From Armatimonadota bacterium (lineage in GTDB: Bacteria > Armatimonadota > DTGP01 > DASXUI01), in NCBI GenBank assembly GCA_036504955.1, contig DASXUI010000320.1, positions 3,071 to 67,070 of the forward strand: DNA of 64,000 nucleotides, in the 5' to 3' direction. Positions 40,921 to 58,282 of this stretch are shown in pieces. A model generated the notes under the pieces. It was not told the DNA's origin, made no database searches, and was given only the letters and a program-made list of their open reading frames with translations. Numbering within the stretch: the first letter of the stretch is position 1; every line of letters begins with the position of its first letter. Both the position numbers and the translations under genes were made by a program.

Positions 40921-41280
40921 TCACTCTGCGACCACCTTGGCCTCACAGGTCCTGTCCAACTCGATTCCGGCGATGGCTAGTCCCACCTGCTCTACGGTTG
41001 CTCCGATGGAGTAGGCCATCAGAATCATGGCGTCCAGGGACGTGGAGGAATGGGCTTTCTGCATCTTCGCAACGCGGGAATGGTCTGTGCCTGCGGCAGC
41101 GGCTAGCCAAGTCTGTGTGAGCTGCCTCTCCTGCCGTTTCGCCCGAATGAGCCTCGCTACTCGTAAGCGAGTCTCTACCAGAGCGTGGTCTTCTGCGGAC
41201 AAGCCCAGAAGGTCTGCGTATCTCCCAATGGTCCACCCGTGGGAGATCAGGTTCGACCGCTCTTCATTGGTGAGCGGCAT
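40921..41280 (-). CDS. XRE-family HTH antitoxin (HigA-like)
   Basis: HTH LTQTWLAAAAGTDHSRVAKMQ. Lies immediately downstream of the RelE/ParE-like ORF in toxin-first HigBA order. Confidence 0.6.
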   Translation of the reverse strand: MPLTNEERSNLISHGWTIGRYADLLGLSAEDHALVETRLRVARLIRAKRQERQLTQTWLAAAAGTDHSRVAKMQKAHSSTSLDAMILMAYSIGATVEQVGLAIAGIELDRTCEAKVVAE

Positions 41281-41310
41281 GGATCACCATCCTCTCTCCG
41301 TGGCTGCTTC

Positions 41311-41553: not shown

Positions 41554-42302
41554 GGGCTTCGAGCGAGGGGGCGTTCTTCCTGCCTGGGGCTCGCCTACAA
41601 CGAACTCAAGGTTGCGCTTCCCGTCGCTAGTTCAGGGAGGAATTGAAGGCCTACTCGCCATCCACACTGCTTCCTTCTCAGGGGTAGGCATCGTCGCACT
41701 CATCCCCTTGCCATGATTCAACCCCAAAGAACGCTACCTGCCCGGTATGGCCTGGGCGTTGACCCGAGGCTGCTGTGCCTTGGTGCCAGTGGGTACCGGA
41801 CAGTCGGGCTCCGGGAAGGCTACCGGACGGCCAGCTTTGCTCGGAGCGGCGTCAGGACGAGATTGGCAGGGCTTAACAAGGGGGCCATTCCTAGGAATAA
41901 CGGGCATGAGGGGTCTGGCAACGCCCAAAGGCCTAGACAACCAGGGAACAGATCTTAGGGCTGGCGCCAGGGATGGGGTAGGTCGATGCCGCTGGTGCCA
42001 GCAGCATCGCCAGGGCCGAACCCTTCCTCATGCTCAGCCATCTTCGCGGTTAGCTGCCCCAGCAAGGGTGAGTGGCTGACTCGGCCAAGCTCCCAGGGGG
42101 CCGACGCCCACCCTCACGCCAGAGGGGGACGATAATGAATCCCCAGAGATGGGCCACGCGCGGGTGCCTGTGGCCTCCAACGAGTATAGCGGACGCTTGG
42201 GCATCGGCCCCATGGGTGTCAATAGCCGCCCCGATCTGTACCACCCAGAGTCGGGTGGATCTGTACCACTTGGGCTGGGGGAGGTCGTTGCCTGGTAGTG
42301 GG

Positions 42303-42748
42303 CTAAGACTCAGTCAGAGCTGAGGGAGAGCCTCCTTCCTGGGGGAACAGGGAACGTCGTTGGCGTTGGCGGTAGCTCTCGCCGGTGAGGGCCGTGAGCT
42401 GGGCGTGGTGGGTTAGGCGGTCCAGCGCGGCGGAGGCCAGCAGCCCGTCGCCGAAGACCTCCGCCCACTCCGAGGGCGCCCGGTTGCTGGTGAGCAGAAT
42501 GCTGCCCCGCTCGTAGCGGCGCTGGAGGATCTCGTAGAGGTCCTCGGCTCCCGGGGCGCTGACGGGCCGCAGGCCGAAGTCGTCCAGGATCAGCAGGTCC
42601 ACGCAGCTCAGCTTCTGCAGCCGACGGGGGTAGGTGCCGTCGGCACGGGCGGCATAGAGGCCCGCCAGGAGTCGGTGGGTCGAAGCCGCCAGGACTCGGT
42701 AACCCCGGGAGAGCGCCTCGTAGCCCACGGCGATGGCCAGGTGGCTCT
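42303..42748 (-). pseudogene. istB: istB C-terminal fragment (from ...KSHLAIAVGYEA to the end) of IS21 copy 2
   Basis: SHLAIAVGYEALSRGYRVL...LLILDDFGL...SILLTSNRAPSEWAEVF...LDRLTHHAQLTALTGESYRQR. Resumes exactly at the Walker-A position where the N-terminal fragment breaks off. Confidence 0.75.
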
Positions 42749-43052
42749 TACTGCAACCCTCACACTGCACCTCTAGGTGAGGAGGTTCCCCTTCCGAGCA
42801 CAGTGACGGTGCTCGATCCACGCCATCCCCTCTGGGGCCTGACTCTTCCCCTGGTAGGCCGGGCCCATTCCTCCCTCCTGGGTCCCTGCTTCTGGGTGCT
42901 CCTTCGCGAAGGCGTCCGTCGCCTCGTCTCCGTCTCCTCCACCAACCTGGCCGCCGACCCGCTCCCCCTCTTCCCACTCCCCCTCAGTCTCGGTAGCATC
43001 CATCAGTTGCTGGCTACGTACGCTCGTGTCACATCCGGGCCAGCCGAGGGGG

Positions 43053-43274
43053 ATGCCCATGACCCGCTCGATCCCGCCCCCGCCTCTGGGGCTCCACTCT
43101 GGGGACCCCAGGCTGGGGGAGCAGCCGGAGAGCCCTCCGGTCTGCCTGCCGCCCCACCAAGTGTGGGCCACTCTCCAGCCCTTTCAGCGCCAGCGGGTGC
43201 TGCAGGCTCTCACCCGAGTGTGCCGAGCCCTGCTGACCCCCCAATCCCCGGAGGAGACCGATGAGCGCCTCTGA
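43053..43274 (+). CDS. Small protein translationally coupled to the serine recombinase (candidate accessory/directionality factor)
   Basis: GC3 about 80%. Its stop overlaps the recombinase ATG (43261). Pro-rich N-terminus then a helical VWATLQPFQRQRVLQALTRVCRALL. Start codon uncertain (43026/43053/43062). Confidence 0.35.
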   Translation: MPMTRSIPPPPLGLHSGDPRLGEQPESPPVCLPPHQVWATLQPFQRQRVLQALTRVCRALLTPQSPEETDERL

Positions 43275-45378
43275 CCCGTCCCTCGTGCCGCTGCCCGGCG
43301 CTCAGAAGGTGACCCCTCGCCATCGTCAGGGCTTGGCTTGCGTCTATGTCCGCCAATCCTGCCTCAAGCAGGTGGAGAACAACCGGGAGAGCCAGATCAA
43401 CCAGTACCGTCTGGCGGAGAAGGCCCAGGCTCTGGGCTGGCCTCCCGAGCAGGTACGCGTCATCGATAGCGACCTGGGCCTCTCCGCTCAGAGCAGCGAC
43501 GATCGCTCGGGCTTCAAGGAACTGGTGGCCGAGGTCTCCCTGGGCCATGTCGGGTTGGTCCTGGGCTACGAGGTCTCCCGCTTGGCCCGCAACAACAGCG
43601 ACTGGTACCATCTTCTGGACCTGGCCGCCGTCTTCGGCACCCTCATCGCCGATAGCGACGGTCTCTACGACCCTCGCTCCTACAATGACCGACTCCTGCT
43701 GGGGCTGAAGGGCACCATGAGCGAAGCCGAACTTCACCTGCTGCGCCAGCGCTTGGACGCGGGCCGCCTCACCCAGGTCCAGCGCAACGCCTACCGACAG
43801 CAGCTCCCCACGGGGCTGGAGCGGCGGCTCGATGGCACGGTGGTGAAGGATCCCGATGACCAGGTGCGGCACACCTTGGAGCTGGTCTTCGAGAAGTTCG
43901 AGGAGCTGGGCACCGCCCACGCGGTGATGCGCTACCTTCGCCAGGCCGAGATCCGGCTGCCCCGGCGGCAGCGCTGTGGGCCACAGCGCGGGGAGGTGCT
44001 CTGGAAGGTGGCCGCCGATTGGGCGGTCCGGGACATCCTGCGCAACCCCGCCTACGCCGGAGCCTTCGCCTATGGGCGGCGACAACTCGAACCCAGTCGG
44101 TTGCAGCCCGGCTTCCGGGCTACCGGGCGGTTGGCTCGCCCCGAGGAGGAGTGGCTGCATCTGGCTCAGGGGATCTACCCGGCCTACCTCTCCTGGGAGC
44201 AGTTCGAGGCCAACCAGGAACGGCTCCGAGCCAACAGCACCTTGAGCTGGGCCGCGACTCAGGAAGGGGCAGGACCGGTACGCGAGGGAGCTGCCCTGCT
44301 GCAGGGCTTGGTCTTCTGCGGCGCTTGCGGGCGGCGAATGCGCACGGTCTACCGCGGCGCCACCTACCGCTACGCTTGCGAGGCCTTGGCCAAGGAGCGA
44401 GACCTACCACGCTGCGGGTCGCTGTTGGGGCCTGCCCTGGACGAGAGGGTGGCCGAAGCCTTCCTGGCCGTGCTGCAGCCCGCGCAACTGAGCGCGCTGG
44501 AAGCCCTGTTGGCGGACCAGCAGCAGGAGCGCGAACGGCTCAGCCGCCACTGGGAGGAGCGGCTGAAGCGGGAGCGCTACGAAGCCGGACTGGCAGAGCG
44601 ACAGTACCGGGCGGTAGACCCGGAGAACCGTCTGGTGGCCGCCGAGCTGGAACGACGCTGGGAGGAGACGCTGCGCCGCCTTCAGGCCACCCAGCAGGAG
44701 TACGAGCGCTTTCGGCGCACGCTGGAGGTGCCCCAACTCAGCGAAGAGCAGAAGCAGCTTTTCGCCGAGATCTCGACTCGGCTACCGGGGCTGTGGGAGA
44801 GCGGTGAGCTGAGCCCCCCCCAGAAGAAGGAGTTGCTACGGAGCCTGGTGGACCGGGTGGTGGCCCGGCGGTGGGATTCGGGTACGGTGGAGCTGAGGAT
44901 CCTGTGGGTTTCGGGCCACTACACCGAGACCGTGGTCCGCCACTCCGTGACCCGATTGGTGGATGTGGCCGACTACGACCGGCTGGTCCTCCGGGTGGAG
45001 GCGCTGTGGCGAGAGGGACTGACGGATGAGGCGATCGCGGCGCGTCTCACCGAGGAAGGGCTGCGCTCAGCGCGCTCCCGGCGAATCCCGGCCCAGACCA
45101 TCCAGCAGCTTCGGCTAGAGCGGGGCTGGTATCAGAGGCTGCACCGCAGCCGAGGAGCCGATGAGGTGGAGGGCTACCTGACGGTGCGAGGGCTGGCCGT
45201 GCGGCTGGGAGTCAGGCGGGGTTGGGTCTACCGCTGGCTAGCGAGAAACCCGCTGCAGGAACGCTGGGTTCTAGGACATCCGAAAGGCGGTCTCTACCTG
45301 ATCCGGGCTGACGAGGAACTCCTCGCCCAACTACGTCGGTGCTTACCGGGGAAACCGGGTAGGCCAAAGGGGCATTGA
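43261..45378 (+). CDS. Large serine recombinase (resolvase/invertase N-domain + recombinase domain + zinc ribbon + coiled coil)
   Basis: Catalytic-Ser region ACVYVRQSCLKQ...QINQYR. Resolvase-domain motifs VSLGHVGLVLGYEVSRLARNNSDWYHLLDL. Zinc ribbon CGACGRRMRTVYRGATYRYAC...PRCGS. Long C-terminal coiled coil. 705 aa. Confidence 0.9.
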   Translation: MSASDPSLVPLPGAQKVTPRHRQGLACVYVRQSCLKQVENNRESQINQYRLAEKAQALGWPPEQVRVIDSDLGLSAQSSDDRSGFKELVAEVSLGHVGLVLGYEVSRLARNNSDWYHLLDLAAVFGTLIADSDGLYDPRSYNDRLLLGLKGTMSEAELHLLRQRLDAGRLTQVQRNAYRQQLPTGLERRLDGTVVKDPDDQVRHTLELVFEKFEELGTAHAVMRYLRQAEIRLPRRQRCGPQRGEVLWKVAADWAVRDILRNPAYAGAFAYGRRQLEPSRLQPGFRATGRLARPEEEWLHLAQGIYPAYLSWEQFEANQERLRANSTLSWAATQEGAGPVREGAALLQGLVFCGACGRRMRTVYRGATYRYACEALAKERDLPRCGSLLGPALDERVAEAFLAVLQPAQLSALEALLADQQQERERLSRHWEERLKRERYEAGLAERQYRAVDPENRLVAAELERRWEETLRRLQATQQEYERFRRTLEVPQLSEEQKQLFAEISTRLPGLWESGELSPPQKKELLRSLVDRVVARRWDSGTVELRILWVSGHYTETVVRHSVTRLVDVADYDRLVLRVEALWREGLTDEAIAARLTEEGLRSARSRRIPAQTIQQLRLERGWYQRLHRSRGADEVEGYLTVRGLAVRLGVRRGWVYRWLARNPLQERWVLGHPKGGLYLIRADEELLAQLRRCLPGKPGRPKGH

Positions 45379-45389
45379 GATGGCTGAGC

Positions 45390-45725
45390 TTTGCCCACGC
45401 CGGTCGGTCCGTAGAGCAGCCAGTTCTCCTGTCGGGCGATGAACTCACAGCTCGCCTGGCGCAGAACGAAGGCCCGGTCCAGGGTAGGCAAGGCGGCGAA
45501 GTCGAACTGGCTGAGGCGCTTGGGGCGCTCGAAGCCGGCTTCTCGCTCTCGGCGCTCCAAGACGTGCTGATGACGCCGGTCGATCTCGTCCTCGAGCAGC
45601 AGAGCGAGGAACTCCAGCGGGGAGAGCTGCTGACTCTGAGCCAACTCCACCCGTGCGTTGAGGGTGTTCAGCATCCCCGAGAGCTTCAGCTCCTTGAGCT
45701 TGGGGGCCAGGGGATGAGTCAGCAT
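45390..45725 (-). pseudogene. istB: istB N-terminal fragment of IS21 copy 2 (through Walker A GPTGVGK)
   Basis: MLTHPLAPKLKELKLSGMLNTLNARVELAQ...FDFAALPTLDRAFVLRQASCEFIARQENWLLYGPTGVGK, after which the frame runs into the inserted element. Confidence 0.75.
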
Positions 45726-47260
45726 GAGGGGGCCTCCGGGCCGAAGAACTCCTCAGGCTGCCGAGCATGGGCGTAGGTCCGAGGAGTCGCGGGGACCGCC
45801 TTCCCTTCCTCGGCGAGGGGTTCGCTGTCGAGGCCCGCGGCCAGGATGGCCTTGACCCGCCGGTAATGCGGGTCGCCGTAGTGCAGGGCTCGGGCGCAGG
45901 CCGCCTCCAGGCGCTCCCGACCCACCCGAGCCTCCAGCCCCACCAGGCTCTGCACCGCCCTCAGGTGGTCGGCGGGAGACTGAGCCAGGAGGTAGACCAC
46001 TAATAGATGACAAGAGGGGCCGACTTGCTGAGCGCGCTCCTGGCAGACTTCGGGCGTACGCTCCAGGTAGAGGGCCTTCTCCTTGGGGTAGTGCTCCAGG
46101 CGGGTGAAGCGCTCGCCGGGGCTTTGGGCTCGGGGATGGGTGATCACTAGCTCCGTGCCTCGGTAGAGCTGGAGGGTGTGCTCGTAGAGGTGGGCTTCCA
46201 GGGTCTGGCCCACCAGGGCGTGGGGCACCGAGTAGAAGCTGCCCTCCAGCACCACGTGGCAGTCCCGGTGCACCCGCACCTCGCGGACCGCCTCGAGCTG
46301 GAAGGGCTCGGGGGGGAGAGGTGCCAGGGCCTCCCGCTCCCGCTGGAAGCGGGCCAGGGGCGCTTCGTGAGTGGTGCCGTGGTCCCTTACGCCAGCGACC
46401 TCCCGCACCCAGACTCGCACCCGCTGGTTGGCGTCGGCGAGATCCACGAAGGAAGCCCCCGCCAGAAAGTTCCGCTGCAGGTAGCGGACGCCGTTCTCCA
46501 CCTTGCCCTTGTGCTGGGGGGTACGAGGGCGGCAGGGATGCAGCAGGAAGCCGTAGTGCTGGGCCATCTGGCGGTAAGGAGTGGAGAAGACCGGGTCCTC
46601 CAGAGCATGCTGGAGCACCCCGGCCTTCAGGTTGTCCAGGACGATCTCTTGAGGCGTGCCCTCGAAGCTCTCGAAGGCCCGGCGGTGGCAACCGATCCAG
46701 GTGGGCAGGGACTGGTCGAAGACGAACTCGACGTACTGATGCCGAGAATAGCTCAGGGTCATCAGGAAGGCGTAGGCGGGGCGTAGCTTGCCGGTGCCCG
46801 GGTCCTTCAGCTTCCCGACCGCGGTGAAGTCCACCTGGGCCTGGCGTCCGGGAGACGTCTCCAGGCGCACGGTGGCCTGGGGGCTCGGAGGGCGAAGATG
46901 CCGCACGAAGCGCCGTACCGAGGAGTAGCTTCCTGGGTAGCCGTGGTGCTGGACCAGTCGCTGGTGCATGGCGCTCTGCTCCACCCCTAAGCGCAGCCAC
47001 TCCTCGATCAGCGCTTGGTAGGGCTCTACGCTGGAGGGGCAGCGCGGAGGGGGAGCGGGCGGCCCCAGGTGGGCCAGCAGCAGGTCGGGAGGCGGCAAGG
47101 GCGTCCCAGGCTCCAGGAAGCCCTTCCCTCGGGCCAACTCATGGTAGCGGCGGACGGTCATACGGGAGTGTCCCAGGTCGCGGGCGATGGCCCGCTCGGA
47201 TTGCCCCTGTCGCAGGCGGTAGACGATGTCTTGGATGAGCTGCATGGGTAGTCGCTCCAT
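45719..47260 (-). CDS. istA: IS21 IstA transposase (intact, 513 aa)
   Basis: N-terminal HTH (IQDIVYRLRQGQSERAIARDLGHSRMTVRRY), second HTH (LVQHHGYPGSYSSVRRFV), DDE region (GRQAQVDFT...). Overlaps the istB start by 7 nt. Confidence 0.85.
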   Translation of the reverse strand: MERLPMQLIQDIVYRLRQGQSERAIARDLGHSRMTVRRYHELARGKGFLEPGTPLPPPDLLLAHLGPPAPPPRCPSSVEPYQALIEEWLRLGVEQSAMHQRLVQHHGYPGSYSSVRRFVRHLRPPSPQATVRLETSPGRQAQVDFTAVGKLKDPGTGKLRPAYAFLMTLSYSRHQYVEFVFDQSLPTWIGCHRRAFESFEGTPQEIVLDNLKAGVLQHALEDPVFSTPYRQMAQHYGFLLHPCRPRTPQHKGKVENGVRYLQRNFLAGASFVDLADANQRVRVWVREVAGVRDHGTTHEAPLARFQREREALAPLPPEPFQLEAVREVRVHRDCHVVLEGSFYSVPHALVGQTLEAHLYEHTLQLYRGTELVITHPRAQSPGERFTRLEHYPKEKALYLERTPEVCQERAQQVGPSCHLLVVYLLAQSPADHLRAVQSLVGLEARVGRERLEAACARALHYGDPHYRRVKAILAAGLDSEPLAEEGKAVPATPRTYAHARQPEEFFGPEAPSC

Positions 47261-47744
47261 CGGGCCTCCTCAGCTCTAGGAAGCCTGAAGAGGCTGGTCG
47301 AAAGCAACGACTTCCGCCGGCGGTGGGGTGGTCCAGATCGCCCGACTCCAGGTGGTACCGATCGGGCGACTCTGGGTGGTACAGATCCACCCGACTCCTA
47401 CTGGTACAGTCTAGGGCGGTCAGTGACACATGGGTGCTGGCTAAGCACCTGCATTCCCCGCCCCGAGTGCCCTGACTAGGGTCTGGGCTGACCCATGGCA
47501 GGCCCCGATGCCTGGTGGTGAAGACCGATCGGTCCATATGCCGTGCCTTCGGCAGCCTTAGAGGCAAGGGTCTCCTGCTCACTCACTACGTCTGAGGCGA
47601 CGGCATGAGGTGAGATCACACAGCCAATGGCTTCGGCCCTCTCCGCGTGGTCCTGACCGAACCCAACTACCGAGGCCATCTGCACGAGCCCCCTCCAGTT
47701 CCGCCTGAGAGCGTCGGTGAGGCAATGTCCGCCTCAGGTACAAC

Positions 47745-47960
47745 AACCGCCGGACATCACCTTCAGGTGGGTCATGGAGCATCTGAAGCCACCGGAGATA
47801 GTTCGCAGGTGGACCGTGAAACAACCGGGGAGCCACCGGACATTATCTGCAGGTGGACCGTGAAACAACCGGGGAGCCACCGGACATTACCTGCAGGTGG
47901 ACCGTGAAACAACCAGAGAGCCACCGGAAATGATCTGCAGGTGGACCGTCAGACACCCTT
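47745..47960. repeat. Tandem array of ~44-bp repeats (about 3 full copies plus a partial copy and degenerate leading copies)
   Basis: aggtggaccgtgaaacaaccggggagccaccggacattatctgc repeated head-to-tail with a few substitutions, ~300 bp outside the IS21 copy-2 terminus. No spacers. Confidence 0.7.
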
Positions 47961-50900
47961 AGAACGCAAGGCAATTGGGCAGAGTCGGCTAGGGGCCTTG
48001 AGCCCATACCTATCTGGCGGTTCGTCTCAGGAGACACCGGACACAGGGCTCACTGCCCATTCGATCTCCAGTGACCGGCCATGATCTAGCGTCGGCGAGG
48101 CATGCCGTGGGGTTGGAAAAAGCGGCAGATCCGGCGACGACCTCATGATGGCAACGGCCCCGATCGGGAGCACTCAGTGTCGGGTCAATCGGTACACCCT
48201 GGGGTGGCGGAGGCCGTTGTTGGATGATGGGCTGGAGAGCCTTCAGGCTCCAGGGGGGCTGCCCTCTGTGAGCTGCGGGCGCCTGGTGCCGCGTTAGGGA
48301 GATGGCGCGCGAGTTCCAACCATTTCCTCACGGCCCAGATCGGGGCTGCCGTGAGCCTGAGGCCATCGGCCACGTCGGCGGGACGACCCACTCAGATACG
48401 CGCCACCAAGGGCGGGTCGTTGATACCCCTGCAACTGCCTGGGTACCTTCGCACCGACCATACCCGCGGTGCACTGGCCCTTGCCCCCAGCTCGGCAACG
48501 GAGACACTCCGGAGCCTCGTCGCGGCGGCCGGTGGGCCAACGGCGTCCACGAGTCAGCTTGGCCGAGTAAGCGCCACCGGGCAACCTATACTCGCCCACG
48601 GGCCAGTGCGGGACTCCGCGGCGCTTCACCGGGCGTACTGCAGCCGCCCCCCGTACCTCGCGACACCAGGAGGAAGTCCCACTGGCGAACGGCCACTCAC
48701 ACGCTGGCGCAGGCATCGACAAGCGATGCTCTATAGTGGGCGAAGCCCTGCTCCCCAAGCCACCGTCGCTGACGTGCCCCCGGCCGCCCATGGGCCTGGC
48801 CCCCGGGACCGACTTCAGAGGGAGCCACCGCACGCCCGTTTGTGGGCGTACCGCACCAGCAGAATGTCTGTGTAATGCGGTGGCGGGGCGGCTCAGTGCC
48901 AGGGGCCTCCATATCGACTACTGTCGGGAATCTGAGACCGGGGGTTGCCCCACAGCACTAGCATCTAGGAGACAAGCGATGACATGCTCTTCCTGCTCTG
49001 CCATCGTTCCCAGCCGGCGTGGCAGCACCGCAGTGCCTGGGCGAAGCCCCTCATGCGACGGTACCTGCGTCCAGGCCCGTCGTTACGCGGACGGGCCATC
49101 CTGGCCTCCTGAGCATGTGGGGACCGCCACGGGAGGCACACCCACCCTTGCTACTGCGTCTTGAGTCTCACCAAGCAGACCTTAAGGGATCGTGGCGTGG
49201 GTCCCTGGCATACTCGGCACCCACGCAGTGTATGGGCCCAGAGGGCCTGGCTCTCGCAGCCCCATCGCCCCAGCCAGGCCCCCAACATGCCTCCCAGCCC
49301 TGAGGCCGGGCCTACCCATACCCACCCTCGTTTTCGTACGAGCACCAAGGGCATGGACGTCAGACACGGGTCCCCAAGGAGAGGCCAAGATCCCGCGCTC
49401 AGAAGTGAGGAGAGCAATGATGGCCTCGGCTCCTCCAGAACTGGATATCTAACAGTAGACTGCTCACTATACTGAGAGCGCGCACGCATCGGCTCATTGG
49501 GCAAGCACCGGGCTTGGCGCCCCCCGGCCCTCCGACCGCTGGCCTGTTACCGGCCGGACGCGAGCAGCGAGAGCGCGGCACCAGCAAGGCGGTGCGAGAT
49601 ATGTGGTTTCAGAGCGGTGTAGGGCCCCACAGACGAACATGCAAGGGCTACGAAGTGTGTTGTCATCTTATGTGGAGGTCCGAGGCCGGCACCCGCGAAG
49701 ACCCGTGGTGCTCCGGGCTCAGGGGAGGGCACCCCAATCACGGGTATGGATGCCACACCGTGCCAAGCACAGTACCGCTAGGGATGCCCCGCGGGCCATC
49801 TTACGAATAACACACGCCCTCGTCACCTCGTGTCTAGTGACAGTGGTCCACCTCAGGCAGGGCAATGCGACTGTGCCGGGTGGGAGTGGTGTGACGCAGA
49901 CAGATAGATGGTGGGTCCGACATAAACAAGCGATCCTAGGTATGGTTATGGACGCCAATATGGTATCCCCACGCTTGGATTCGTACCTACGAGAGGGGTT
50001 AAGGTACCCTCCAAATCCCCCTGAGGATCACATAAGCGCCCAAATGTGATCCAGTCAGGCCTGGTGAGGGGTACACTAGCTTCCCGGCCCATCAACATGG
50101 CTTCGCCTAAGGCGTGCGGACTTCCCTTCCCCTAGCTATCAGCGCTCAGCAGGGGAAAGGCCGGCTCTCCATCAACCGGTTCCTTCATGGGGCGTCAGAC
50201 TACCTGACTCCGGGGCATCGGCTCTGCCCTGTAGTCATGGCCCCCGTCTAGCGTCTGCTCACGGGCCGGCCGCTCTGCCTCGACGCAGGCGTCTGGACCT
50301 GAAACGCCTTGGAGGCATAAAGCCAACAGTGAAAGCGACTACCAGTGAGGCACTGAGCCCAGAGGCGCTGATGGCCGCAATGGCTGGTCCAACGCCGCTG
50401 CATAGCCCGGTTGACGGGGGGCACTGTTCACCTGTCCGTCACAGCAGGCCCAAGACGGGGACCGACAGGCCCACAGGCACAGCATGCCGAGCCCCCAACT
50501 TGGGGGGTGACGGGTATTGAGCAGGCGGGCCTGGGCGAGGGGACCCCTTGGGGGAACTGCCTGTACTCGATGTGGTGTACCCTGGGGGCTGCGCCCGAGT
50601 TGGCGGTCCCCACCTGGGGGGGCAAGATCGAGAGTGCGACCGGCTGAGGCACCGGGGCCACGCTCTTGTGGAAGTGCGCAGAATGGTGACGGCTGTCTCT
50701 CCCTTCTGCTGGGGATCCCACCGGAACCTAGCTCCCAGCCCCTTCTCGAATTGGCGTGGCGCCCGACCCGGCCGGCACAGTCTCGAAAACCAGGAGTGCA
50801 GAAGGTACTGCTGATCAGCACCAGATACGGATGGACCCGGCAGGGACTGTCAGAGATACTGCACGCCGAAGGGGCTGTGTGGTCTAGGAGGTGGCACCTG

Positions 50901-53316
50901 GGCGTCTGGGGAGGTTGTGTGTGGCAGATCGCCCTCGGCGCTTCCCGCGGCCACTGGCGGGTTCCCCATCACCATGTCTTTGAGCTGCTCTGCGCGGGGG
51001 GCAGCACTAGCCCCAACTCCCCCAGATAGCCCACCAGTACCGTGTTTCGAAGACCGCCTATCCGGGCCTCCCGTCGGACCTCACCAACACCGGTACGTTG
51101 AGCGTCCCCTACAGGCGTAGCGTTCCGCCCTTGGCCACCTCAGCTAGCATCAGTACGAGGATGGGCGCCATCTTGGCGATCGCACCTGTGGCATCCGTGG
51201 CCGCTGCGGCCTTCGCAGCATTCGTGGAAGTACAGAGATGACCCGGAAGCGTGGCAGAATCCATTCCTTGTCGTGTGTCATCTAGGCACTGACTGAAGGT
51301 GTCAACTGAACGGGCGATGACCTCTTGCCCTGGCGCTTGCCTCCTTGCCACGACGTGACCGCAGTAGCCCACCACACAGCCAGAAGGCAACGGAGGCTCG
51401 CTTGGGGAGCGCCAGTTCGAGGGGGGCGCAGGCGGCAACCATCTTCATGACTCCAAGCACCTTCCGCCAGAAGGTCATCAGGGGGGGGTGGGCAGGAGCG
51501 TCTACAGCTTCCTAGTTCCCTGTGTATGGCCAGCCAGAGGCTCAGAGGCTCCGGGGAATCACCTCCATGCTCTGGAGCCCGGGAGCCCCTCCGAACGGGT
51601 TGTGACGCCTAGCGCTGGCACAGTCTCAGGGAGCATTTTGCAGAATGTGACAGCGCGCTGCGAAGTCGCTCGGGTTCGGGTGTGAGCCTACGGGTGGAAG
51701 CTCGATGGCTATCGAGGGCTCGCCAAGCCTAGGCCGGTCAGGAAGAGCAGCCTCTGGCTGAGGCGGTCAGCGAGCGCAGCGCTCGCAGGTGACGGAAACG
51801 CACGAGGCAGCAGGCTGGGGTGGGAGTGACCGGTATGAGACTTGTTAGTGTCACCTGAGGTCCCCGCCATGGACGGCCAGTGTCTATCTGGGAGTCTCGA
51901 ATTGCCCTGACGCAGTTCGGTCATCGTCTGAAGCGCTGACCAGCTCCGCACTTCTTGCCCCCCAACTCGCCTGAATGCAGCCTAGCGGCTTTCCCTCGCA
52001 CGAAGGGAAGGTGTCCAGTGTTGGCCTCCACGCAACCTGTCGAATGCAAGTCTGGAGTGCAATGATATCGGCTCCGCACTAGGGGACTCCAGGTGTTTGG
52101 CCCCAGTGGTGGCCGGGGCGCCTGGGCCCACTTCACCTCAGGCACCACGGCTGTGCCGCATAGGGGACCGCTGGCGAGGTGCCGCAGGCTGATGGCGACT
52201 TCTGGCGCCCCCTGGACGGACCGCTGGCAGGAACGGTGTCACCGGGCCAGACACGAAGCGTGCCGACGGCTGGTGGTGGATTCGGCTCAGGAGCGGCTCT
52301 GTGGATGGCCTAGTCGGCACAGACAACGGGTCAGGGCGGATTGGTGGTGGTTGTGCCAAACGTCCTCTAGACCTGGGAAGCGGCATGATGTGGGAAGGCG
52401 TGTCAATGGCCGGAGGCAGCGCTCTGCTCCGGGAACGAGCTTACCTTAGCCTCGCCGAGTCTCCAGGAGGTAGGGTGCAACTGTGAGACGCGCATCATCA
52501 CCAGCATCTAGCTCTGCGGCGGCTGCAGGTACCAAGACGGTCGCGTCTCGCAGCGGCCCTGTTATGTGTTTGCACCTGTGGGATCTAGGGTGCCGCGGCA
52601 AGTGACGGTAGGTGGGAGGAAGCCTGAGCCATGGTCCGGGCCAAGCATTTCCGCGAAATAGCGACCACTAGCGGCTCGGCGGAGCAGGACTCCCCACCTT
52701 AGGGCTGGCCTTGCGGAGGCGGCCCCCCGGGGGTAGCTATGGAACGGATTGTAACCTCACTGCCGCCGACGTGGACCAGACTACGTGCCTCCGGCTGACA
52801 GGCTGTGCCGGTGATTGCAGCGCGGGCCTCCACGTAGCTGTCCCGTTGCCGCCCCCAAAGCGCAGGCGGACGTGCATCACGATGGCGGTGGGCTGGTTCC
52901 CGTCGTTTGGGGTAAGGGCCAATGGCCAAGATAGGGATATGTCACCTGTGGTGACGAGGTAAGCTTAGTGCCAGGACCGCCAGTGGACCACAGCGTGGCC
53001 GTCGCTCACTCCCCAGCTATATACCGACCAACTGATTGAAGGCCGGCATGTGCGCCTGCTTACTGCGAGGGGCCCGTAGCACCCTAACAACGCTAGTGTC
53101 TTGGGGACTGCGTGACGCTAACTGGCTGTGGGGGGGCAGGGTTCGTCGCCACCATGCCTACCCATCGTCGGAAGCGGGCAGCATGCTCAGTAGCGCTGCT
53201 CGATGGGCGAGATGGCCGCCTCGTGGAGGGGAAGGGGCGGCATCGAGCCGGCGGTTCACAAGGGCCTCCCCTGGGTCCAAAGGTAGCTGGCTGGGGAGGC
53301 CCTTGCCGTTCGTCCG

Positions 53317-54315
53317 TCAGGCATTAACTCCGAGCTGGCAGGACGGCATCTGCTGTCGTACTAGCGCCCAATCCTCGGGCGTTAGCCGGTCGCGTCCCCT
53401 AGCTATGAGGCGGGAGACGTAAGCCTCGCCCTCGACCAGAGCCACTAAGGCCAGGGGGCGAGCGTTCTTCTCAGTCCATGCCCTTGTCTTCATGTAGTCG
53501 CGTACTCGCGGGGCGGTGTCGAGCCTTGACTTGGCCACCCTACCAAGAAACACGTCCCAGTTCTCCCAGGTACGCCACCTAGACTTCTGCTTGTTCGCGC
53601 CAGGCTCCTTGAAGTCAATGTACGACTTCAGGACGCCTGCCATTCCAGCCATTCCCTCCTCACAGATTCGATTGGCAGCCAGTTGTGCTGCTCTGTGCTT
53701 CAGTTCGAACTCCACTCGAATCCATGGGCCAGGCGTGTCAGTCTGGACTGCCTTGTCATAGATACGTAGGTATCTCTGCCCCTTGCGGCTTCCAAAGGAC
53801 TCCCCGTAGCTCACCTGCTCCCCATCGGCTGTGTTGCAGCCATGTGGAAGGTACGAAAGACCATTCCTGGCCCGGCAGACGTAGTAGCCCTGGCGTATGC
53901 GGCGCTGGATGTCCTGCATACTGAGGATGCCACAGTGGTCATCGACAGCCACATCAATCCGCTTCATGGAGGCGTTACTAGCCAAGAGGAGGCCGAGGAA
54001 CTCGCGCCACGTGTGACCGGGGGCATCGTCGGTGCCTTCGTTCCTAATGACTCCGATGCGCTCCAACTCACGGCATCCGCGACCGCTTAGCAGTAAGTAC
54101 GGTTCGCATGACTTCCGCTTGGTAAACCTGAAGATAGTTCCTGGCCTAGAGGCTCCGTACTGATGGTATCTCAGGTTCCTGGTGCCTATGAGGCTAAGAA
54201 GCTCGGAATGGTCAGAACCTTCTGGAAACCCCACCTTTAGGTAGTCGATGCATATCTGCGATGCACTTTGCAATTGTGTATTACTAAGGGAGCATCCGTC
54301 CATATTACCGTTCAT
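53317..54315 (-). CDS. Rep_trans-family rolling-circle replication initiator
   Basis: GSRKGQRYLRIYDKAVQTD and WIRVEFELKHRAAQ match the Rep_trans YxRiYDK...RvElElr signature. 332 aa. Confidence 0.65.
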   Translation of the reverse strand: MNGNMDGCSLSNTQLQSASQICIDYLKVGFPEGSDHSELLSLIGTRNLRYHQYGASRPGTIFRFTKRKSCEPYLLLSGRGCRELERIGVIRNEGTDDAPGHTWREFLGLLLASNASMKRIDVAVDDHCGILSMQDIQRRIRQGYYVCRARNGLSYLPHGCNTADGEQVSYGESFGSRKGQRYLRIYDKAVQTDTPGPWIRVEFELKHRAAQLAANRICEEGMAGMAGVLKSYIDFKEPGANKQKSRWRTWENWDVFLGRVAKSRLDTAPRVRDYMKTRAWTEKNARPLALVALVEGEAYVSRLIARGRDRLTPEDWALVRQQMPSCQLGVNA

Positions 54316-54366
54316 AGTGTAGTGAACCTTCGTGACTTTCTACCTGCGTGAGCAGGCCCAAGCGCT

Positions 54367-54612
54367 CTAGATATCCCTTGCAGGCATGGCGTTGCTGCTG
54401 ATCCACTCCAAGAGCAGTGAACGGGGTATCCTCACAGCCCTGCCCAGTCGAAGGACAGGAATCTCACCTCTACTCGCCATCGTGTAGACTTTGGAGCGGC
54501 CCAGGCCCAGCATCTCGGCAGCCTCTCCAACTCGCAGTAGTGCTCGCTCCACCATCTGACTCCTTTCGTTGGTGGGAGTGGCCCCACAACGGAGCCACTG
54601 TTTCCCAAGCAT
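54367..54612 (-). CDS. xis: Excisionase/AlpA-family HTH DNA-binding protein (start possibly at the internal Met at 54555)
   Basis: LLRVGEAAEMLGLGRSKVYTMASRGEIPVLRLGRAVRIPRSLLLEWI is the typical Xis/AlpA MerR-like HTH. Confidence 0.7.
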   Translation of the reverse strand: MLGKQWLRCGATPTNERSQMVERALLRVGEAAEMLGLGRSKVYTMASRGEIPVLRLGRAVRIPRSLLLEWISSNAMPARDI

Positions 54613-54665
54613 CGCATAGAGTGGTAAGATGGGTCTAGTAGTTATACCCCCCGGTTTAATACCTA

Positions 54666-55940
54666 GTGAGGCGCAGTGTGAGTGCTAGAAGGAAGTGCAT
54701 AGGCGAAGGTGGGGCGCGGCTTGCCATTGATGGCTCGCGCTCCTGGATCGGCAGACGTGTTGGAAACGTATGGCTTGAAGGACAGACGGACGAAGCAACC
54801 CTAATCTTCGACCCCGAGCCCATTGCCGATGGCGAGTCCGCGGACCGGTGCCTTGAGGAGTTCAAAGCTATCGGGGCCTCGCGTTCGGCGGACCGAGCAC
54901 TTGCTTTCGCCAGGAGATGGGGTCGGTTAGGGCTCTGCACGTGCGGCCGGCCACTGAGCCATCAGCCCCTGGGACCGACCTTCGATCGGGGGAGTCCAGA
55001 TGCACCCCAAGATGCTGGCGATCGGAGGCAGTGTACCTTCGTATCCTCAGGAGACTACCCTTCAGAACAGGTGAGTGACTGGTTCTTGTATGCGGGGCAT
55101 GCTCGCAGCTTCCTAGATCTCTATGAGAAGCTGGCCAGCAACCGGATTCCCGAGGAGTCGGAGTGGAGGGCTCTTCCAACTGCCGTTGGGCACGACGGCA
55201 ACGAATCGGGGCGCGAGAGCGATTGGTTCTGGCAGAAGCTAATGTTGGCTAACCGGCCGCCCTTTAGGAGCATACACCTCCGGCTATCGGCAGCTAGCGA
55301 TCCGATGGCCGGTCTGGGGGTATGGTGGCTTGCGGGACTGGATGGTACCGATCTCTTCCGGTTTCCCCGAGCCACAACGGAGGACCGTGACACGATTAGG
55401 TGGTTCACGCAGTCAGGCTGTCAGCTAATCCCCCAGGAGGAGCTGGTGTGGTACCGCAGTCCTGAAGGGGCCAATCACCGGTCGACGATGGCCAACTACT
55501 GGTACTCGCTGGTCCTCAACGCACACCGTGTCAGGCTGGCTGAATGCCTGTCTGTCTGGCTCGGCCCAGCCTGGGTCAACTTGGCACCTCGCTTTGTCTG
55601 GGGCGACGATCTTCCAGTGGAGAACGACAAGACGCCTCATCTCGAGCTGATGGAGGCAGTTCCGGCGCCCATGTACAATAGGGCCAGTTTCACTCTTCTG
55701 TCGCTCCTCGCGGTTAAGTTGGTGGAGGCCCTGTCAAGTGGGGTCTACCGCTGCAGTGTCTGCCACGAGCCCTTCACGCTCCGTGTCAGTGATGACGGGC
55801 GCAAGGTGCGGCACGACCGACGATTGTACTGCTACCGGACCGAATGCCTCCTGGAGAGAGACAGAAGATCGAAGCGTGAGACCTACAGGAGGAAAAGGGA
55901 CCGGGCTGCGCAAGAGCGGCTAGGGGGCTCCACGACCTAG
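54666..55940 (+). CDS. Hypothetical 424-aa protein with a C-terminal Cys cluster and basic tail, located between xis and int
   Basis: Long single ORF. C-terminal CSVCHEP...CYRTEC followed by RDRRSKRETYRRKRDRAAQER. No recognisable catalytic motif. Confidence 0.5.
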   Translation: MRRSVSARRKCIGEGGARLAIDGSRSWIGRRVGNVWLEGQTDEATLIFDPEPIADGESADRCLEEFKAIGASRSADRALAFARRWGRLGLCTCGRPLSHQPLGPTFDRGSPDAPQDAGDRRQCTFVSSGDYPSEQVSDWFLYAGHARSFLDLYEKLASNRIPEESEWRALPTAVGHDGNESGRESDWFWQKLMLANRPPFRSIHLRLSAASDPMAGLGVWWLAGLDGTDLFRFPRATTEDRDTIRWFTQSGCQLIPQEELVWYRSPEGANHRSTMANYWYSLVLNAHRVRLAECLSVWLGPAWVNLAPRFVWGDDLPVENDKTPHLELMEAVPAPMYNRASFTLLSLLAVKLVEALSSGVYRCSVCHEPFTLRVSDDGRKVRHDRRLYCYRTECLLERDRRSKRETYRRKRDRAAQERLGGSTT

Positions 55941-56010
55941 TGCCGGTCAGGGAGGACCGTGTGGTGTGAGCACGGTGGCCATCGGGTAGCGCGGCCACCA
56001 GGGAGGGACG

Positions 56011-57156
56011 ATGGGTAGGAGACGGGGGCACAATGAGGGGTCAGTCCACTATCGCCATGACCGCGACCGCTGGGTTGCGGAGCTGACAGTGGAAGATGGG
56101 CGGCGCAGGCAGTTCTACTGCAAGACAGAGAAGGAAGCAAGAACCAAGCTCATCTCGGTGCTTGGCGATCTTCAAAGGGGGATGCTACCTTCAGGCCGCC
56201 AGCAGTCGGTGAAGGCCTTCCTTGAGCACTGGATCGAGAACGTTGCCAAACAGCAGGTTCGGCCCAAGACGTGGGACCGCTATAGCGGACAACTGAAGAA
56301 GCACATCGTTCCGGCTCTGGGCCGAAAGCAGCTAGGCAAGCTGTCCGCCCAGGACCTCCAAGTCTTCTATAATCGAAAGATATCTGAGGGCCTGGCGCCA
56401 CGCTCCGTTGTGCACATGCATCGTGTGCTCCACAAGGCTCTCGGAGAGGCTGTCAGGCTTGACCTCATCTCCCGAAACCCCTGTGCTCTCGTAAAGCCCC
56501 CGAAGGTATCTCAGTCACCGATCCGCTTCCTGACCGCAGAGGAGGCCAAAACACTCCTCGCGGCGGCCCAAGACGACCCTCTTGAGGCCCTCTATGTGCT
56601 GGCTCTGACCACCGGTATGCGCCAGGGAGAGCTGCTGGGGCTTAGGTGGGACTGTGTTGACCTGGATGGCCTGGCCGTCCATGTGCGCAGAACGGTCTAC
56701 TGGAGGCAGGGGCACGGCTTCGTCTGGTCCGAACCCAAGAGCAAGGCAAGCCAGCGTCGGGTTTCGCTTACAGAGGTGGCGGCGTCGACACTCCGACACC
56801 ACCGCGAACGGCAATCAACTTCCAGGCTGCTCGCTGGAGACGCCTGGTGTGAGCAAGGGCTCGTCTTCCCCAATAGCGTGGGGAACCCGATCAACGCCAA
56901 CAACCTACTGAATCGGTCTTTCAAGCCGCTGCTGGAGAGGGCGGGCCTCCCGAAGGTGCGTTTCCATGACCTCCGGCATTCGGCTGCGAGTCTGCTGCTG
57001 TCCCTAGGAACTCATCCGAAGATCGTGCAGGAGTTGCTTGGGCATAGCAGTATCAGTGTCACGCTTGATATCTACTCGCACGCGATCCCAACCCTCCAAG
57101 ACCAGGCTGTTAGCCAACTTGCAGACCTTCTGGGTCGGGGGCAAGGTTCAGCCTAG
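56011..57156 (+). CDS. int: Tyrosine integrase (phage integrase family)
   Basis: SAM-like core-binding region (VKAFLEHWIENVAKQQVRPKTWDRY). Catalytic motifs RFHDLRHSAAS, LLGHSSISVTLDIYSH (R..H..R..Y). Ends 98 bp from the tRNA 3' end. Confidence 0.9.
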   Translation: MGRRRGHNEGSVHYRHDRDRWVAELTVEDGRRRQFYCKTEKEARTKLISVLGDLQRGMLPSGRQQSVKAFLEHWIENVAKQQVRPKTWDRYSGQLKKHIVPALGRKQLGKLSAQDLQVFYNRKISEGLAPRSVVHMHRVLHKALGEAVRLDLISRNPCALVKPPKVSQSPIRFLTAEEAKTLLAAAQDDPLEALYVLALTTGMRQGELLGLRWDCVDLDGLAVHVRRTVYWRQGHGFVWSEPKSKASQRRVSLTEVAASTLRHHRERQSTSRLLAGDAWCEQGLVFPNSVGNPINANNLLNRSFKPLLERAGLPKVRFHDLRHSAASLLLSLGTHPKIVQELLGHSSISVTLDIYSHAIPTLQDQAVSQLADLLGRGQGSA

Positions 57157-57254
57157 GCTGTCTGCTGTCAGTTTTGCTGTCACCATCCAATTCAGGCAAG
57201 TAAAGCAAGAGGCCCAACCACCATATGTGGTGGCTGGGCCTTCTTGATTGCTCT

Positions 57255-57327
57255 ACATCTTGTAAGCCGACGTCCGGACTTGAACCGGAGACCTACGCAT
57301 TACGAGTGCGCCGCTCTACCAACTGAG
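57255..57327 (-). tRNA. tRNA-Thr (anticodon CGU)
   Basis: 73-nt cloverleaf folded by hand: acceptor gccgacg/cgtcggc, D-arm gctc-agttggta-gagc, anticodon stem gcgca/tgcgt with loop cuCGUaa, T-arm tccgg-ttcaagt-ccgga. CCA is not encoded. Confidence 0.85.
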
Positions 57328-58282
57328 CTACGTCGGCGTTTCTGATGGCGGCCTTCGCCGACTCGGCAGCGCCCAGGGGCGTGCCTCGCGGGGCCATCTT
57401 CACACTACCGGAATCGGTCGGTGGCTGTCAAGAATCCGAAGGCTCTCGCGCGCGATGGAGGGCATCACGGAGCGGCGTGAAGATGGTCGCTTGGCCCAGT
57501 CTGGGGGCGGCTCTGGAGGGCTTCCCGGCCACGGGTCTGCAGGGATTGAGCGCGCGGCTGCTGGGGGAGGGGGCTGGTGGTCAGGGGACGGGAGGGCTGT
57601 CGATCGGGGCGAGAGGTCTTGGGTGCTGGACCGGCCAGCCGTCTGGGCGTCAGCACCTCGAAGGTGCGGTGGCGCCGTGCAGGGGCGCACTAGCCCCGGA
57701 GGCGGAAGAGGCCGGACAGCCAGAGGGCGTACTTAAGCAGCACGTAGATACCGATGGCCGCCGCCACGCCCTGCCACGGGTTCACCCGCGCCCAGAGCCA
57801 GGCGTCCTTCAGGTAGGGGCTTATCTGGTCAACGGCGGTCATAGGGTCTCCTGGGTCGCCCGGCACGGCGGCGGATCGGCTAGGCTTGGGGGACATGCAG
57901 GTGTGCGCTTGAAGTATCGGCCTCAGAAGCGTGCGCCCGAGGGGCTCGGTCCGCCGTAGTCACAGCTTCCGGTTCACCCGCGCCGGGGTTGGGTCCACGG
58001 CTCCGGCGCCTCGGCCGCTCAGGTGATCTGTCGCGCGCAAGCGCACGGCTGGGGCGTCATCCATCAGCTCACTTCCATGGTCCAAGGAGGAGGTTGGCGC
58101 CGGTGGGCTGAGCACACTACCCGCGTTATCGACGCTTGCGGCGGAAACCTGTAGTGTCCTAGGAAGCGAGGTGATGCCGACAGTGGCGGCGGAAGAGGCG
58201 CGGGTGGCCGGGGCCGAAGCTAACGGTGGCGCGGGGCGGAGCAACCTGTGGCAGGGGGCGGGACGCCGGGAGAGGGATGGAG

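Follow-up and report, generated by a model that had tools for sequence, protein, structure and literature searches.

The left end of ICEBs1 consists of int-immA-immR divergent from xis ... nicK. In PICI and P4-like satellites, the genes for an integrase and a regulator point away from one for a small Xis/AlpA-like protein, after which comes a replicase gene. To our knowledge, almost no mobile elements have been described from Armatimonadota. Small integrated Rep_trans elements are known from Firmicutes; like the locus described here, they have their own integrase, with or without xis, and no mating-pore genes, and their Rep_trans-family protein is an RCR initiator and/or a relaxase (2017, PMC5704250). 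The same roles, alone or together, are found for Rep_trans proteins in IMEs and ICEs (PMC5704250; PMC6499999), and NicK/MobT proteins are nickases that also drive rolling-circle replication of the excised element (PMC5704250). AICEs such as pSAM2 are likewise tRNA-integrated and carry int, xis, and rep, and their excised form replicates by the rolling-circle mode (te Poele 2008, PMC2440964; PMC3218068). The modules that define AICEs are an FtsK/SpoIIIE Tra protein for dsDNA transfer and RepSA (an HUH-motif initiator), RepAM (DUF3631), or Prim-Pol, and AICEs have been found only in Actinomycetales (Ghinet et al. 2011, PMC3218068).

The window analyzed here, meaning the whole 64-kb stretch of DNA, comes from an uncultured Armatimonadota MAG, and the closest relatives of a flanking gene are from Chthonomonadales. 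We read the block at ~53.26-57.30 kb as the core of a non-conjugative mobile element, with functions in integration, regulation, and replication, that inserted next to the tRNA-Thr(CGU) 3' end. The element is most likely of the IME type, a small integrative rolling-circle replicon that is complete in itself at ~4 kb; we give this reading a probability of about 0.45. The four-gene core looks intact and is an ordinary representative of a known kind of element. Two other independent assemblies, JGI and Logan, contain identical DNA, which we count in favor of this reading. It differs from the Firmicutes elements, which have recognizable att repeats and often a coupling protein or cargo (PMC5704250), in its Armatimonadota host, in that no att repeat or oriT was found, and in having an unnamed zinc-ribbon family in the regulator slot. 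The element carries no cargo. As in IMEs, it has its own integration/excision module (the integrase and a TIGR01764 protein), and the window holds no mating-pore (T4SS) genes. The ORF scan covered listed ORFs of at least 150 aa, except a few overlapped by a scanned gene, and shorter ORFs with coding signal; none matched FtsK/SpoIIIE (PF01580), T4SS, relaxase, Zot, or capsid families, in agreement with an earlier statement that transfer genes are missing. The preliminary description had called the locus a relic of an AICE-like element. Mobile DNA it appears to be, with an integrase, an excisionase-type gene, and a rolling-circle Rep abutting the tRNA-Thr 3' end, but the AICE type does not hold, and degradation is not borne out by four full-length ORFs with catalytic and metal-binding residues in place. 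Neither an empty site nor an excised circle was observed, so mobility is unproven. The element is probably the most recent integrant of a 57-kb IS-ridden, gene-poor region, at its tRNA-proximal edge.

Islands integrated into tRNA genes usually have their endpoint marked by a displaced repeat of the tRNA 3' end (Islander definition; PMC4383910). ARAGORN and Rfam (RF00005, 71.6 bits) agree on a single intact tRNA-Thr(CGU) gene at 57265-57337 on the reverse strand, the presumed integration target, with its 3' end towards the integrase. The tyrosine integrase (56011..57156, forward strand, 381 aa) matches PF00589 (9.6e-27), Phage_int_SAM_3 (PF14659; 1.6e-14), and phrog_1 (1.7e-81). Alignment to the solved integrases 3nkh and 6emy, together with motif positions, places the catalytic residues (R204, K243/K245, H319, R322, H345, and Y355). 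An integrase thus lies beside an intact tRNA/tmRNA gene, as in Islander islands; ARAGORN, Rfam, and Pfam confirm this adjacency, which had been noted previously, with a spacing of 108 nt (stop at 57156, tRNA 3' end at 57265) and not the 98 bp first given. The displaced tDNA fragment of the Islander definition is absent at ~53 kb and across the 64-kb window. No repeat of 57160-57345 of at least 13 nt occurs anywhere in the window, and the best blastn-short match to the tRNA end was an 11-mer (E=1.4); both searches gave the same outcome as the preliminary description, which had reported no attR-like repeat in the window. The contig extends only ~3.9 kb past the window. In the spacer that separates the integrase stop from the tRNA 3' end, a terminator scan and sequence reading located a hairpin with a 14-bp stem (57210..57241). 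It has the look of a terminator for the tRNA, and probably for int too.

Regulation of the element may involve two divergent genes. The first, orf424 (54666..55940, forward strand), encodes a 424-aa protein with no match in Pfam, NCBIfam, PHROG, or PADLOC. Earlier listed simply as unknown, it belongs to a conserved but unnamed family of 127 remote relatives that is linked to HTH_17 genes. Its features are the N-terminal block FAxRWGxLGIC.HGxPxxH, a C4 zinc ribbon that is invariant (C363/C366/C389/C394 in orf424), and a basic C-terminal helix, and we propose that orf424 is a DNA-binding regulator. The second gene (54367..54612, reverse strand) is an 81-aa ORF, which gene callers start at 54555 to give 62 aa, and it leads a leftward operon that includes rep. 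It matches Pfam HTH_17 (2.8e-15), phrog_66, and the TIGR01764 "excisionase family" model (55.8 bits vs a cut-off of 28.8), while its AlpA score is under the cut-off (16.7 vs 21); the AlpA/Xis identity suggested before is supported in its excisionase-type part. The intergenic region between the two genes (54556..54665) has a GC of 0.52, compared to 0.64 for the window, and holds a -10-like TAAGAT. Comparison of seven loci showed that the equivalent intergenic regions are all below their own locus's GC and all have -10-like hexamers, and this may be a switch or promoter region.

Relatives of orf424 are divergent from an HTH_17 gene in all seven informative contexts, and a replication gene follows HTH_17 in all three contexts that are readable that far. 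The slot after HTH_17 is taken by an 812-aa primase in L085 and by a 653-aa DNA polymerase/primase in L086, indicating that Rep_trans fills a replication slot here. The divergent arrangement, together with the replication gene after HTH_17, suggests a regulatory switch. The pair occurs in an Armatimonadota MAG, a Chloroflexota MAG, and several metagenome contigs lacking assignment; one flank carries interchangeable replicases (Rep_trans, primase, or polymerase/primase), and the other carries integrases or defence cargo. PADLOC defence models (e.g. MADS) gave only a weak mad1 match through the generic HTH_17 domain (6.2e-06), and orf424 and five relatives had no PADLOC match. It is possible, if somewhat doubtful, that the orf424 family and its invariably divergent HTH_17 gene form a two-gene control cassette not described before, which would act in integrative elements as a switch of the cI/Cro or ImmR/Xis kind.

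Base composition sets the block apart from its surroundings. Its GC is 0.593, compared to 0.64 in the adjacent tract and 0.67 in the core, and its GC3 is 0.66-0.70, compared to 0.85-0.88 in the core genes on the right; these departures indicate that the block is foreign. GC changes sharply at two points, falling from 0.68 to 0.60 at ~53.4 kb, which coincides with the rep end, and rising from 0.60 to 0.69 at ~57.4 kb, which coincides with the tRNA; these two steps bound a ~4-kb block (53.3-57.3 kb). A 5.9-kb tract (47430..53316) with no coding, RNA, or repeat signal separates an IS21 copy from rep. At 47.4-53.3 kb, period-3 power is close to the level of random sequence and the stop-codon frequency in six frames equals the GC-based expectation, and at 47.1-53.4 kb none of 41 ORFs of at least 60 aa has a Pfam match; the ~6 kb without coding signal reported earlier is thus borne out. 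The trinucleotide signature of this tract matches that of another tract 40 kb away (r=0.94) and not that of the module, so the tract is not element-specific. Because its composition differs, it probably lies outside the present element, and together with the GC step at ~53.4 kb this argues that the present unit is only ~4 kb, smaller than the very large element, possibly spanning most of the IS-rich region, that the preliminary description had put forward as one option.

A less likely explanation is that the block is a truncated remnant, namely the tRNA-proximal end of a larger ICE, PICI/P4-kind phage satellite, or prophage that has lost its distal genes and its far att to deletion, IS activity, or decay. 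The missing far att repeat in the window is consistent with truncation, and sister elements with the orf424/HTH_17 pair that are readable further (L086 and L097) run at least ~7-9 kb beyond the pair, with many more genes. For IMEs, the build-up of decayed elements in tandem at a single target is well documented (PMC5704250), and the surroundings are IS-rich (IS21 twice, and transposases of the Pfam families DDE_3, DDE_Tnp_1, and DDE_5). However, no gene traces are found directly left of rep, where the composition is common to the distant tract, and all four surviving genes are intact. The perfect 6-bp target duplication of the IS21 copy at 42217-47428 shows that this IS entered by simple insertion and does not mark a rearrangement breakpoint. 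PICI/P4-like satellites have the same layout, and orf424-cassette sisters have primase-type replicases in the corresponding slot, but packaging and capsid-redirection genes are absent here, and the replicase is Rep_trans and not a primase-helicase.

Rep (53317..54315, reverse strand, 332 aa) is a Rep_trans rolling-circle initiator or relaxase-like protein. Its PF02486 match (5.8e-28; 98.3 bits vs a Pfam gathering score of 29.6) upholds the earlier assignment of a rolling-circle Rep_trans initiator beside the integrase; Rol_Rep_N matched weakly. Alignment to PDB 4cij (RepSTK1; 1.7e-11) and motif reading place residues D24, D121/D125, Y186 (LRIYDK), and E202/E204. Rep therefore has PF02486 with the acidic residues and catalytic tyrosine of MOBT proteins, and the NCBIfam MobT model gives 68.1 bits (6.1e-19), far below its cut-off of 600 bits. 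An N-terminal HTH domain is part of the RelSt3 relaxase architecture of MOBT (PMC6499999), and Pfam detected none in Rep. Plasmids of the pT181/pSTK1 kind share the Rep_trans catalytic domain, the R-I/F-Y-D/N-K tyrosine motif, and the acidic metal ligands, and the ~4 kb here is a plasmid-like size; they differ in being non-integrating and in having a known dso hairpin and nick sequence, and Rep identity is only ~24%. A RepAM or Prim-Pol identity was considered and rejected, as Rep has no PF12307 or PF09250 match and falls by PF02486 in the Rep_trans (pT181/pSTK1/MobT/RstA) superfamily. Repeat search and DNA folding (-20.5 kcal/mol, z -3.1) revealed a perfect inverted repeat of 13 bp around a 21-nt loop (53259..53305) that lies 12 nt past the rep stop. 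The window has only ~5 perfect hairpins of this kind; the others that were checked are at gene ends. Most simply, this hairpin is a terminator, and it resembles the terminators at other gene ends in the window; it is also an unproven candidate for an origin hairpin. No oriT, origin, or nick site was identified in the element.

The affinities of Rep also bear on an improbable explanation, that the block is the remnant of an integrated inovirus with a Rep_trans initiator and a tyrosine integrase. In the phage collection, Rep has its best tblastn match to the replication protein of Dulem virus 68, an Inovirus (7e-23, 93% coverage), and CTXphi RstA also matches. However, the 23% identity to inovirus Reps is not above that to MobT relaxases or pSTK1 Rep (23-26% identity for the three groups by tblastn). 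The locus lacks a Zot/pI ATPase and a coat-like gene cluster, the 5.9 kb past rep have no coding signal or Pfam match, and orf424-cassette relatives have primases and no phage morphogenesis genes.

More improbable still is a reading in which the integrase locus has been domesticated or fixed and belongs to no mobile unit any longer. The lack of polymorphism between the only two samples with this DNA, like the missing att repeat, is compatible with fixation. Against this, the composition is foreign, and three other typical mobile-element genes stand alongside the integrase. The FAA-hydrolase loci of related Chthonomonadales are without tRNA-Thr, so there is no conserved synteny to use in support of a fixed locus. 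The degraded, pSAM2-like AICE of the preliminary description is very improbable: a tyrosine integrase (PF00589 9.6e-27), one of the two integrase types of AICEs, is present, and the int, xis, rep order by the tRNA resembles the AICE core (PMC2440964), but there is no FtsK/SpoIIIE Tra (no PF01580) and no decayed FtsK-domain gene was seen in the 47.1-53.4 kb tract, Rep, as a PF02486 protein, is none of RepSA, RepAM, and Prim-Pol, and the DNA comes from an Armatimonadota host.

For the small integrative rolling-circle replicon that we favor, ICEBs1 offers a similar gene order. As at the ICEBs1 left end, the integrase and regulator run towards the att/tRNA end and are divergent from xis and a Rep_trans-family nickase; the differences are that conjugation genes and ImmR/ImmA homologues are absent here and that Rep is without an N-terminal HTH. 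In the proposed working, the tyrosine integrase would recombine the element with the tRNA-Thr 3' region, and the HTH_17/excisionase-family protein would be a directionality factor, an activator of the leftward operon, or both. Control may reside in the divergent region, which is AT-richer and 110 nt long, and the zinc-ribbon protein orf424, co-expressed with int, may act as a DNA-binding maintenance regulator. After excision, Rep_trans would nick an origin via Tyr186 and drive rolling-circle replication of the circle, and it might double as a MobT-like relaxase given a helper conjugative system.

These results show that the int/xis/Rep_trans logic, known mainly from Firmicutes IMEs and ICEs, occurs in Armatimonadota as well. 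The orf424 family is the more useful by-product, being conserved, unnamed, and always paired with an excisionase-type HTH gene that heads a replication operon. If orf424 is a master regulator, it could provide a handle to find and annotate integrative elements in poorly studied phyla. The rest of the finding is ordinary, apart from the correction of two public gene models that are both too short: the public annotation of Rep (249 aa) loses the N-terminal motif, and public annotations begin orf424 at about residue 137.

The four genes at ~53.3-57.3 kb, encoding a tyrosine integrase, the 424-aa protein orf424, an HTH_17 protein and Rep, form an ordinary integrative, non-conjugative, Rep_trans-bearing element in Armatimonadota, an under-studied phylum. 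We put the probability that this block is a self-contained unit of ~4 kb at about 0.45. It works like an integrative and mobilizable element (IME), or like the left end of ICEBs1 joined to a pT181-type replicon. The preliminary description had stated that no transfer genes follow; none was found among the scanned ORFs of the whole window, and virion genes are likewise absent. The same description had called the block a relic; all four genes are free of signs of decay and the catalytic residues of integrase and Rep are present, so that term is not retained.

All four ORFs lie left of tRNA-Thr(CGU) (57265-57337, minus strand; Rfam 71.6 bits), the sole tRNA gene in the window. The integrase (56011-57156, plus strand; 381 aa) matches PF00589 (9.6e-27), Phage_int_SAM_3 (1.6e-14) and phrog_1 (1.7e-81). 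It abuts the tRNA-Thr 3' end as had been described, with a measured distance from stop codon to 3' end of 108 nt rather than 98 nt, and this gap contains a hairpin with a 14-bp stem (57210-57241). Alignment to solved integrases (3nkh and Tn1549 Int, 6emy) located R204 (TGMRQGE), K243/K245, H319-x-x-R322, H345, and Y355. When viral contigs were scanned with the integrase, solely distant phage integrases were matched (25-32% identity).

A displaced tDNA fragment is an Islander criterion for integrated islands (PMC4383910), and none was found in the window, so that the block is at most a putative delimited island. The earlier failure to find an attR was reproduced: 57160-57345 has no repeat of at least 13 nt anywhere in the window. 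The best blastn-short match to the tRNA 3' region was an 11-mer (E=1.4), 8-10-mers common to the tRNA region and candidate left ends occurred at chance frequency, and the tRNA 3' 32-mer had no match in the viral-contig scan. GC content changes from 0.68 to 0.60 at ~53.4 kb and from 0.60 to 0.69 at ~57.4 kb, and GC3 of the module genes is 0.66-0.70 compared to 0.85-0.88 in host genes at 58-64 kb. The strongest rival reading, that the block is what a truncated larger element left behind, is somewhat less likely than a self-contained unit; the missing attR would suit it.

The DNA left of rep was described as lacking coding signal (47.4-53.3 kb), and this holds for the whole 5.9-kb tract (47430-53316), which is like random 64%-GC DNA with period-3 power of ~1. 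Stop codon frequencies in the six frames are 0.021-0.030 (0.0265 expected), 41 ORFs had no Pfam match, Rfam and blastn searches (the latter against plasmids and phages) were negative, and there was no excess RNA folding (mean fold z-score -0.1). Its trinucleotide signature is nearer that of a ~11-kb tract at 3.7-14.7 kb (r=0.94) than that of the module (0.83), and the 5.9-kb tract therefore looks like a property of the genome region, not element body. The ~11-kb tract (3700-14700) is also random-like at 64% GC, with no codon periodicity and six-frame stops at the GC expectation, and the signature common to both tracts is unlike that of genes and IS elements. Two such long random-like tracts are unusual for a bacterial genome. 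Inside the ~11-kb non-coding tract there is a 27-nt tandem repeat, GATGGTGAAAACCGCAATCCTATAACG, in ~6 copies (7713-7874).

Independent assemblies contain the same DNA. JGI contig Ga0376481_000670 carries it with 6 mismatches in 18 kb, and Logan contig SRR11794808_49306 is identical to the window at 47860-57293; thus, the arrangement of the block is no single-assembler artefact. An empty site was sought in GTDB genomes through the flanking FAA-hydrolase gene; the nearest loci were from Chthonomonadales (50-58% identity) and had no tRNA-Thr nearby, so there is no synteny with this group. A right-flank 24-mer gave chance matches to two unrelated contigs in a metagenome scan, and exact-protein look-ups of right-flank genes returned the same JGI and Logan samples only. 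These comparisons yielded no empty site and no sister copy of the complete four-gene unit. In Logan run SRR11794808, the left contig stops at 57293 and the right contig begins at 57278 (16-nt overlap). The break falls within the 3' half of the tRNA-Thr gene; from there the right contig continues past the tRNA 5' end to the flank. Such a break inside the tRNA at k=31 hints that ~57264-57307 (tRNA position 31 to the 3' end) has a second context in this run, which could be attB, attP, attR, another tRNA gene, or an identical partial tRNA of another organism.

Cation ligands and a catalytic tyrosine have been described for Rep_trans and MOBT proteins (PMC6499999). Rep (53317-54315, minus strand; 332 aa) is the Rep_trans protein it had been called (PF02486, 5.8e-28), aligns with RepSTK1 (PDB 4cij, 1.7e-11), and retains at these positions the LRIYDK tyrosine motif (Y186) and acidic residues D24, D121/D125, and E202/E204. 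The public model is N-terminally short (249 aa). Missing from it is a conserved motif of the catalytic domain that aligns to 4cij residues 7-23 and accounts for a weak Rol_Rep_N match. Twelve nucleotides past the rep stop, a perfect 13-bp hairpin (53259-53305) is the sole candidate origin structure; it is similar to gene-end hairpins elsewhere in the window. Almost nothing was recovered with Rep in word-based protein searches, and it had no match in the viral-contig scan.

Rep is about equally far (23-26% identity) from three functional classes: MobT relaxases of enterococcal and lactobacillal replicons (2e-19 to 1e-10), the Rep of rolling-circle plasmid pSTK1 (2e-13), and inovirus Reps (7e-23 for Dulem virus 68, a confirmed member of the Inoviridae with a ZOT gene; also CTXphi RstA). 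It scores 68 bits on NCBIfam MobT, where the cut-off is 600, and unlike RelSt3 it has no N-terminal HTH. For these reasons, we assign it no further than a Rep_trans-superfamily nickase. Since primases fill the same slot in sister elements, the simplest assumption is that it functions in replication. By analogy with ICEBs1 and Tn916, in which a Rep_trans-type protein has a dual relaxase role (PMC5704250), Rep may have such a role too. The match to inovirus Reps is what favors an inovirus remnant, a reading to which we give small weight given the equal closeness of the other two classes. An intact inovirus was rejected because Zot and coat genes are absent.

AICEs are defined by features that include an FtsK/SpoIIIE Tra protein, a RepSA, RepAM or Prim-Pol replicase, and an actinomycete host (Ghinet et al., PMC3218068). 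The preliminary description had taken the set of integrase, Xis and Rep_trans genes to be AICE-like; all three of these features are lacking, and an AICE is very improbable. A domesticated locus, in which the integrase would no longer belong to a mobile unit, also has little weight; the missing att repeat would suit it, but the composition of the genes is foreign.

The HTH_17 gene (54367-54612, minus strand) matches HTH_17 at 2.8e-15 and TIGR01764 (“excisionase family”) at 55.8 bits (cut-off 28.8); it had been named AlpA/Xis, of which the excisionase-family assignment stands, while AlpA and Tn916-Xis matches fell under cut-off. In every informative contig (the window and six contigs with orf424 relatives: L083, L084, L085, L086, L097, which is from a Chloroflexota MAG, and L098), the orf424 homologue is divergent from a 62-74-aa HTH_17 gene across ~100-165 nt. 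These intergenic regions have lower GC than their own loci and contain -10-like hexamers, and L086 at least has a canonical TTGAC(N17)TATAGT promoter pointing towards orf424. Wherever the contig reaches far enough, a replication gene follows the HTH_17 gene: Rep_trans in the window, an 812-aa primase in L085 (phrog_16345, 9.6e-15; a weak DUF3987 mark is on record), and a 653-aa DNA polymerase/primase in L086 (phrog_19930, 2.8e-42). Downstream of orf424 the gene varies, being the integrase in the window, HsdM in L084, the PADLOC candidate PDC-M14A in L083, and host genes in L086. The constant unit is therefore orf424 divergent from HTH_17 followed by a replicase, and the tyrosine integrase and Rep_trans are no fixed partners of the orf424/HTH_17 pair. 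By analogy, this is the layout of a lysogeny-type switch. From position and motifs, we infer that orf424 would be a DNA-binding maintenance regulator and the HTH_17 protein an excisionase and/or an activator of the replication operon. Defence-related cargo occurs near several of these cassettes, namely PDC-M14A (L083, 1812-2861), an HsdM methylase (L084, 2325-3359), and an MmeI-type enzyme (L086, 1-2582).

Most of the block's interest lies in this unnamed family of zinc-ribbon proteins and in its constant pairing with HTH_17 genes. The orf424 protein (54666-55940, plus strand) was described as unknown, which is correct in that it has no match in Pfam, NCBIfam, PHROGs, or PADLOC; however, it belongs to a conserved family. 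Word-based searches matched just orf424 itself; the family emerged solely from a full HMMER scan over 1.84 billion representatives, in which 127 proteins reached E<=1e-3. Two blocks, at ~residues 57-175 and 285-417, are common to them. In a 28-member alignment (A1), C363, C366, C389, and C394 are invariant, C91 and H99 within FAxRWGxLGIC.HGxPxxH are near-invariant, and the C-terminal tail is basic. Family members match no Pfam family past weak zinc-ribbon matches. The AlphaFold model (pTM 0.69) is well-ordered at 60-100, 130-170, and 270-420; Foldseek found no significant match in PDB or BFVD, and a PDB profile search returned C4 ribbons only (e.g., TraR and eL24, E ~0.02-0.09). DUF1470 proteins, which we take to have an ABATE plus zf-CGNR architecture and to be putative DNA-binding regulators, are a lead. 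Public models of orf424 are 284-289 aa instead of ~420-424 and lose the conserved N-terminal block; remote homologues match residues 16-196, a span that begins before the public model's start. The viral-contig scan returned nothing for orf424. A defence-system reading of the block was rejected, as orf424 has no PADLOC match.

From the observed gene identities, catalytic residues, foreign composition, tRNA 3' position, orf424/HTH_17 pairing, and absence of transfer and virion genes, we infer the steps of a mechanism. The integrase would carry out integration and excision at tRNA-Thr, with directionality set by the HTH_17 protein. The divergent 110-nt region would serve as control point and orf424 as regulator. 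Rep_trans would nick a putative origin, and the excised circle would be copied in rolling-circle mode; Rep_trans may also permit mobilisation by a helper.

Insertion sequences are frequent farther left. The 5.9-kb tract borders on an IS21-family copy (42217-47428), which has inverted ends of 54 nt and terminal repeats of 24 nt and is flanked by a perfect 6-bp target duplication (CATGGG). The copy is a simple insertion and does not mark a breakpoint. A ~2.3-kb insertion that holds only a 705-aa large serine recombinase (43261-45378) separates the N part of its istB (45294-45752) from the C part (42303-42977); the copy is a nested mobile element. A 44-nt tandem repeat of 3.7 copies (47787-47949), with a CCACC...GGTGG inverted repeat in each unit, is found 360 nt beyond the right-hand IS21 end, and the Logan contig breaks within it. 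The 20-nt IS21 terminal sequence GTCTAGGGCGGTCAGTGACA also stands alone, without adjacent IS21 genes, at 6925-6944, 7140-7160, and 24897-24916; these solo copies could be what earlier insertions left behind, or miniature derivatives. Inverted repeats of 171 nt (78% complementary; 31791-31961 and 37304-37474) bound 5.3 kb encoding part of a DDE_5 transposase, an unknown protein of 346 aa, and an AAA_33/glycosyltransferase protein; a composite transposon is one possible reading. Immediately to the left of the IS21 insertion, two small HTH_37/XRE-type (HigA-like) genes with clear coding signal (40090-40521 and 40921-41283) lie side by side in DNA that is otherwise gene-poor. A 222-aa ORF (19596-20264) aligns with no more than positions 3-109 of the 203 in the GLF (UDP-galactopyranose mutase) profile and probably represents a truncated gene, which fits the scarcity of genes and abundance of IS elements in the 57 kb left of the tRNA.
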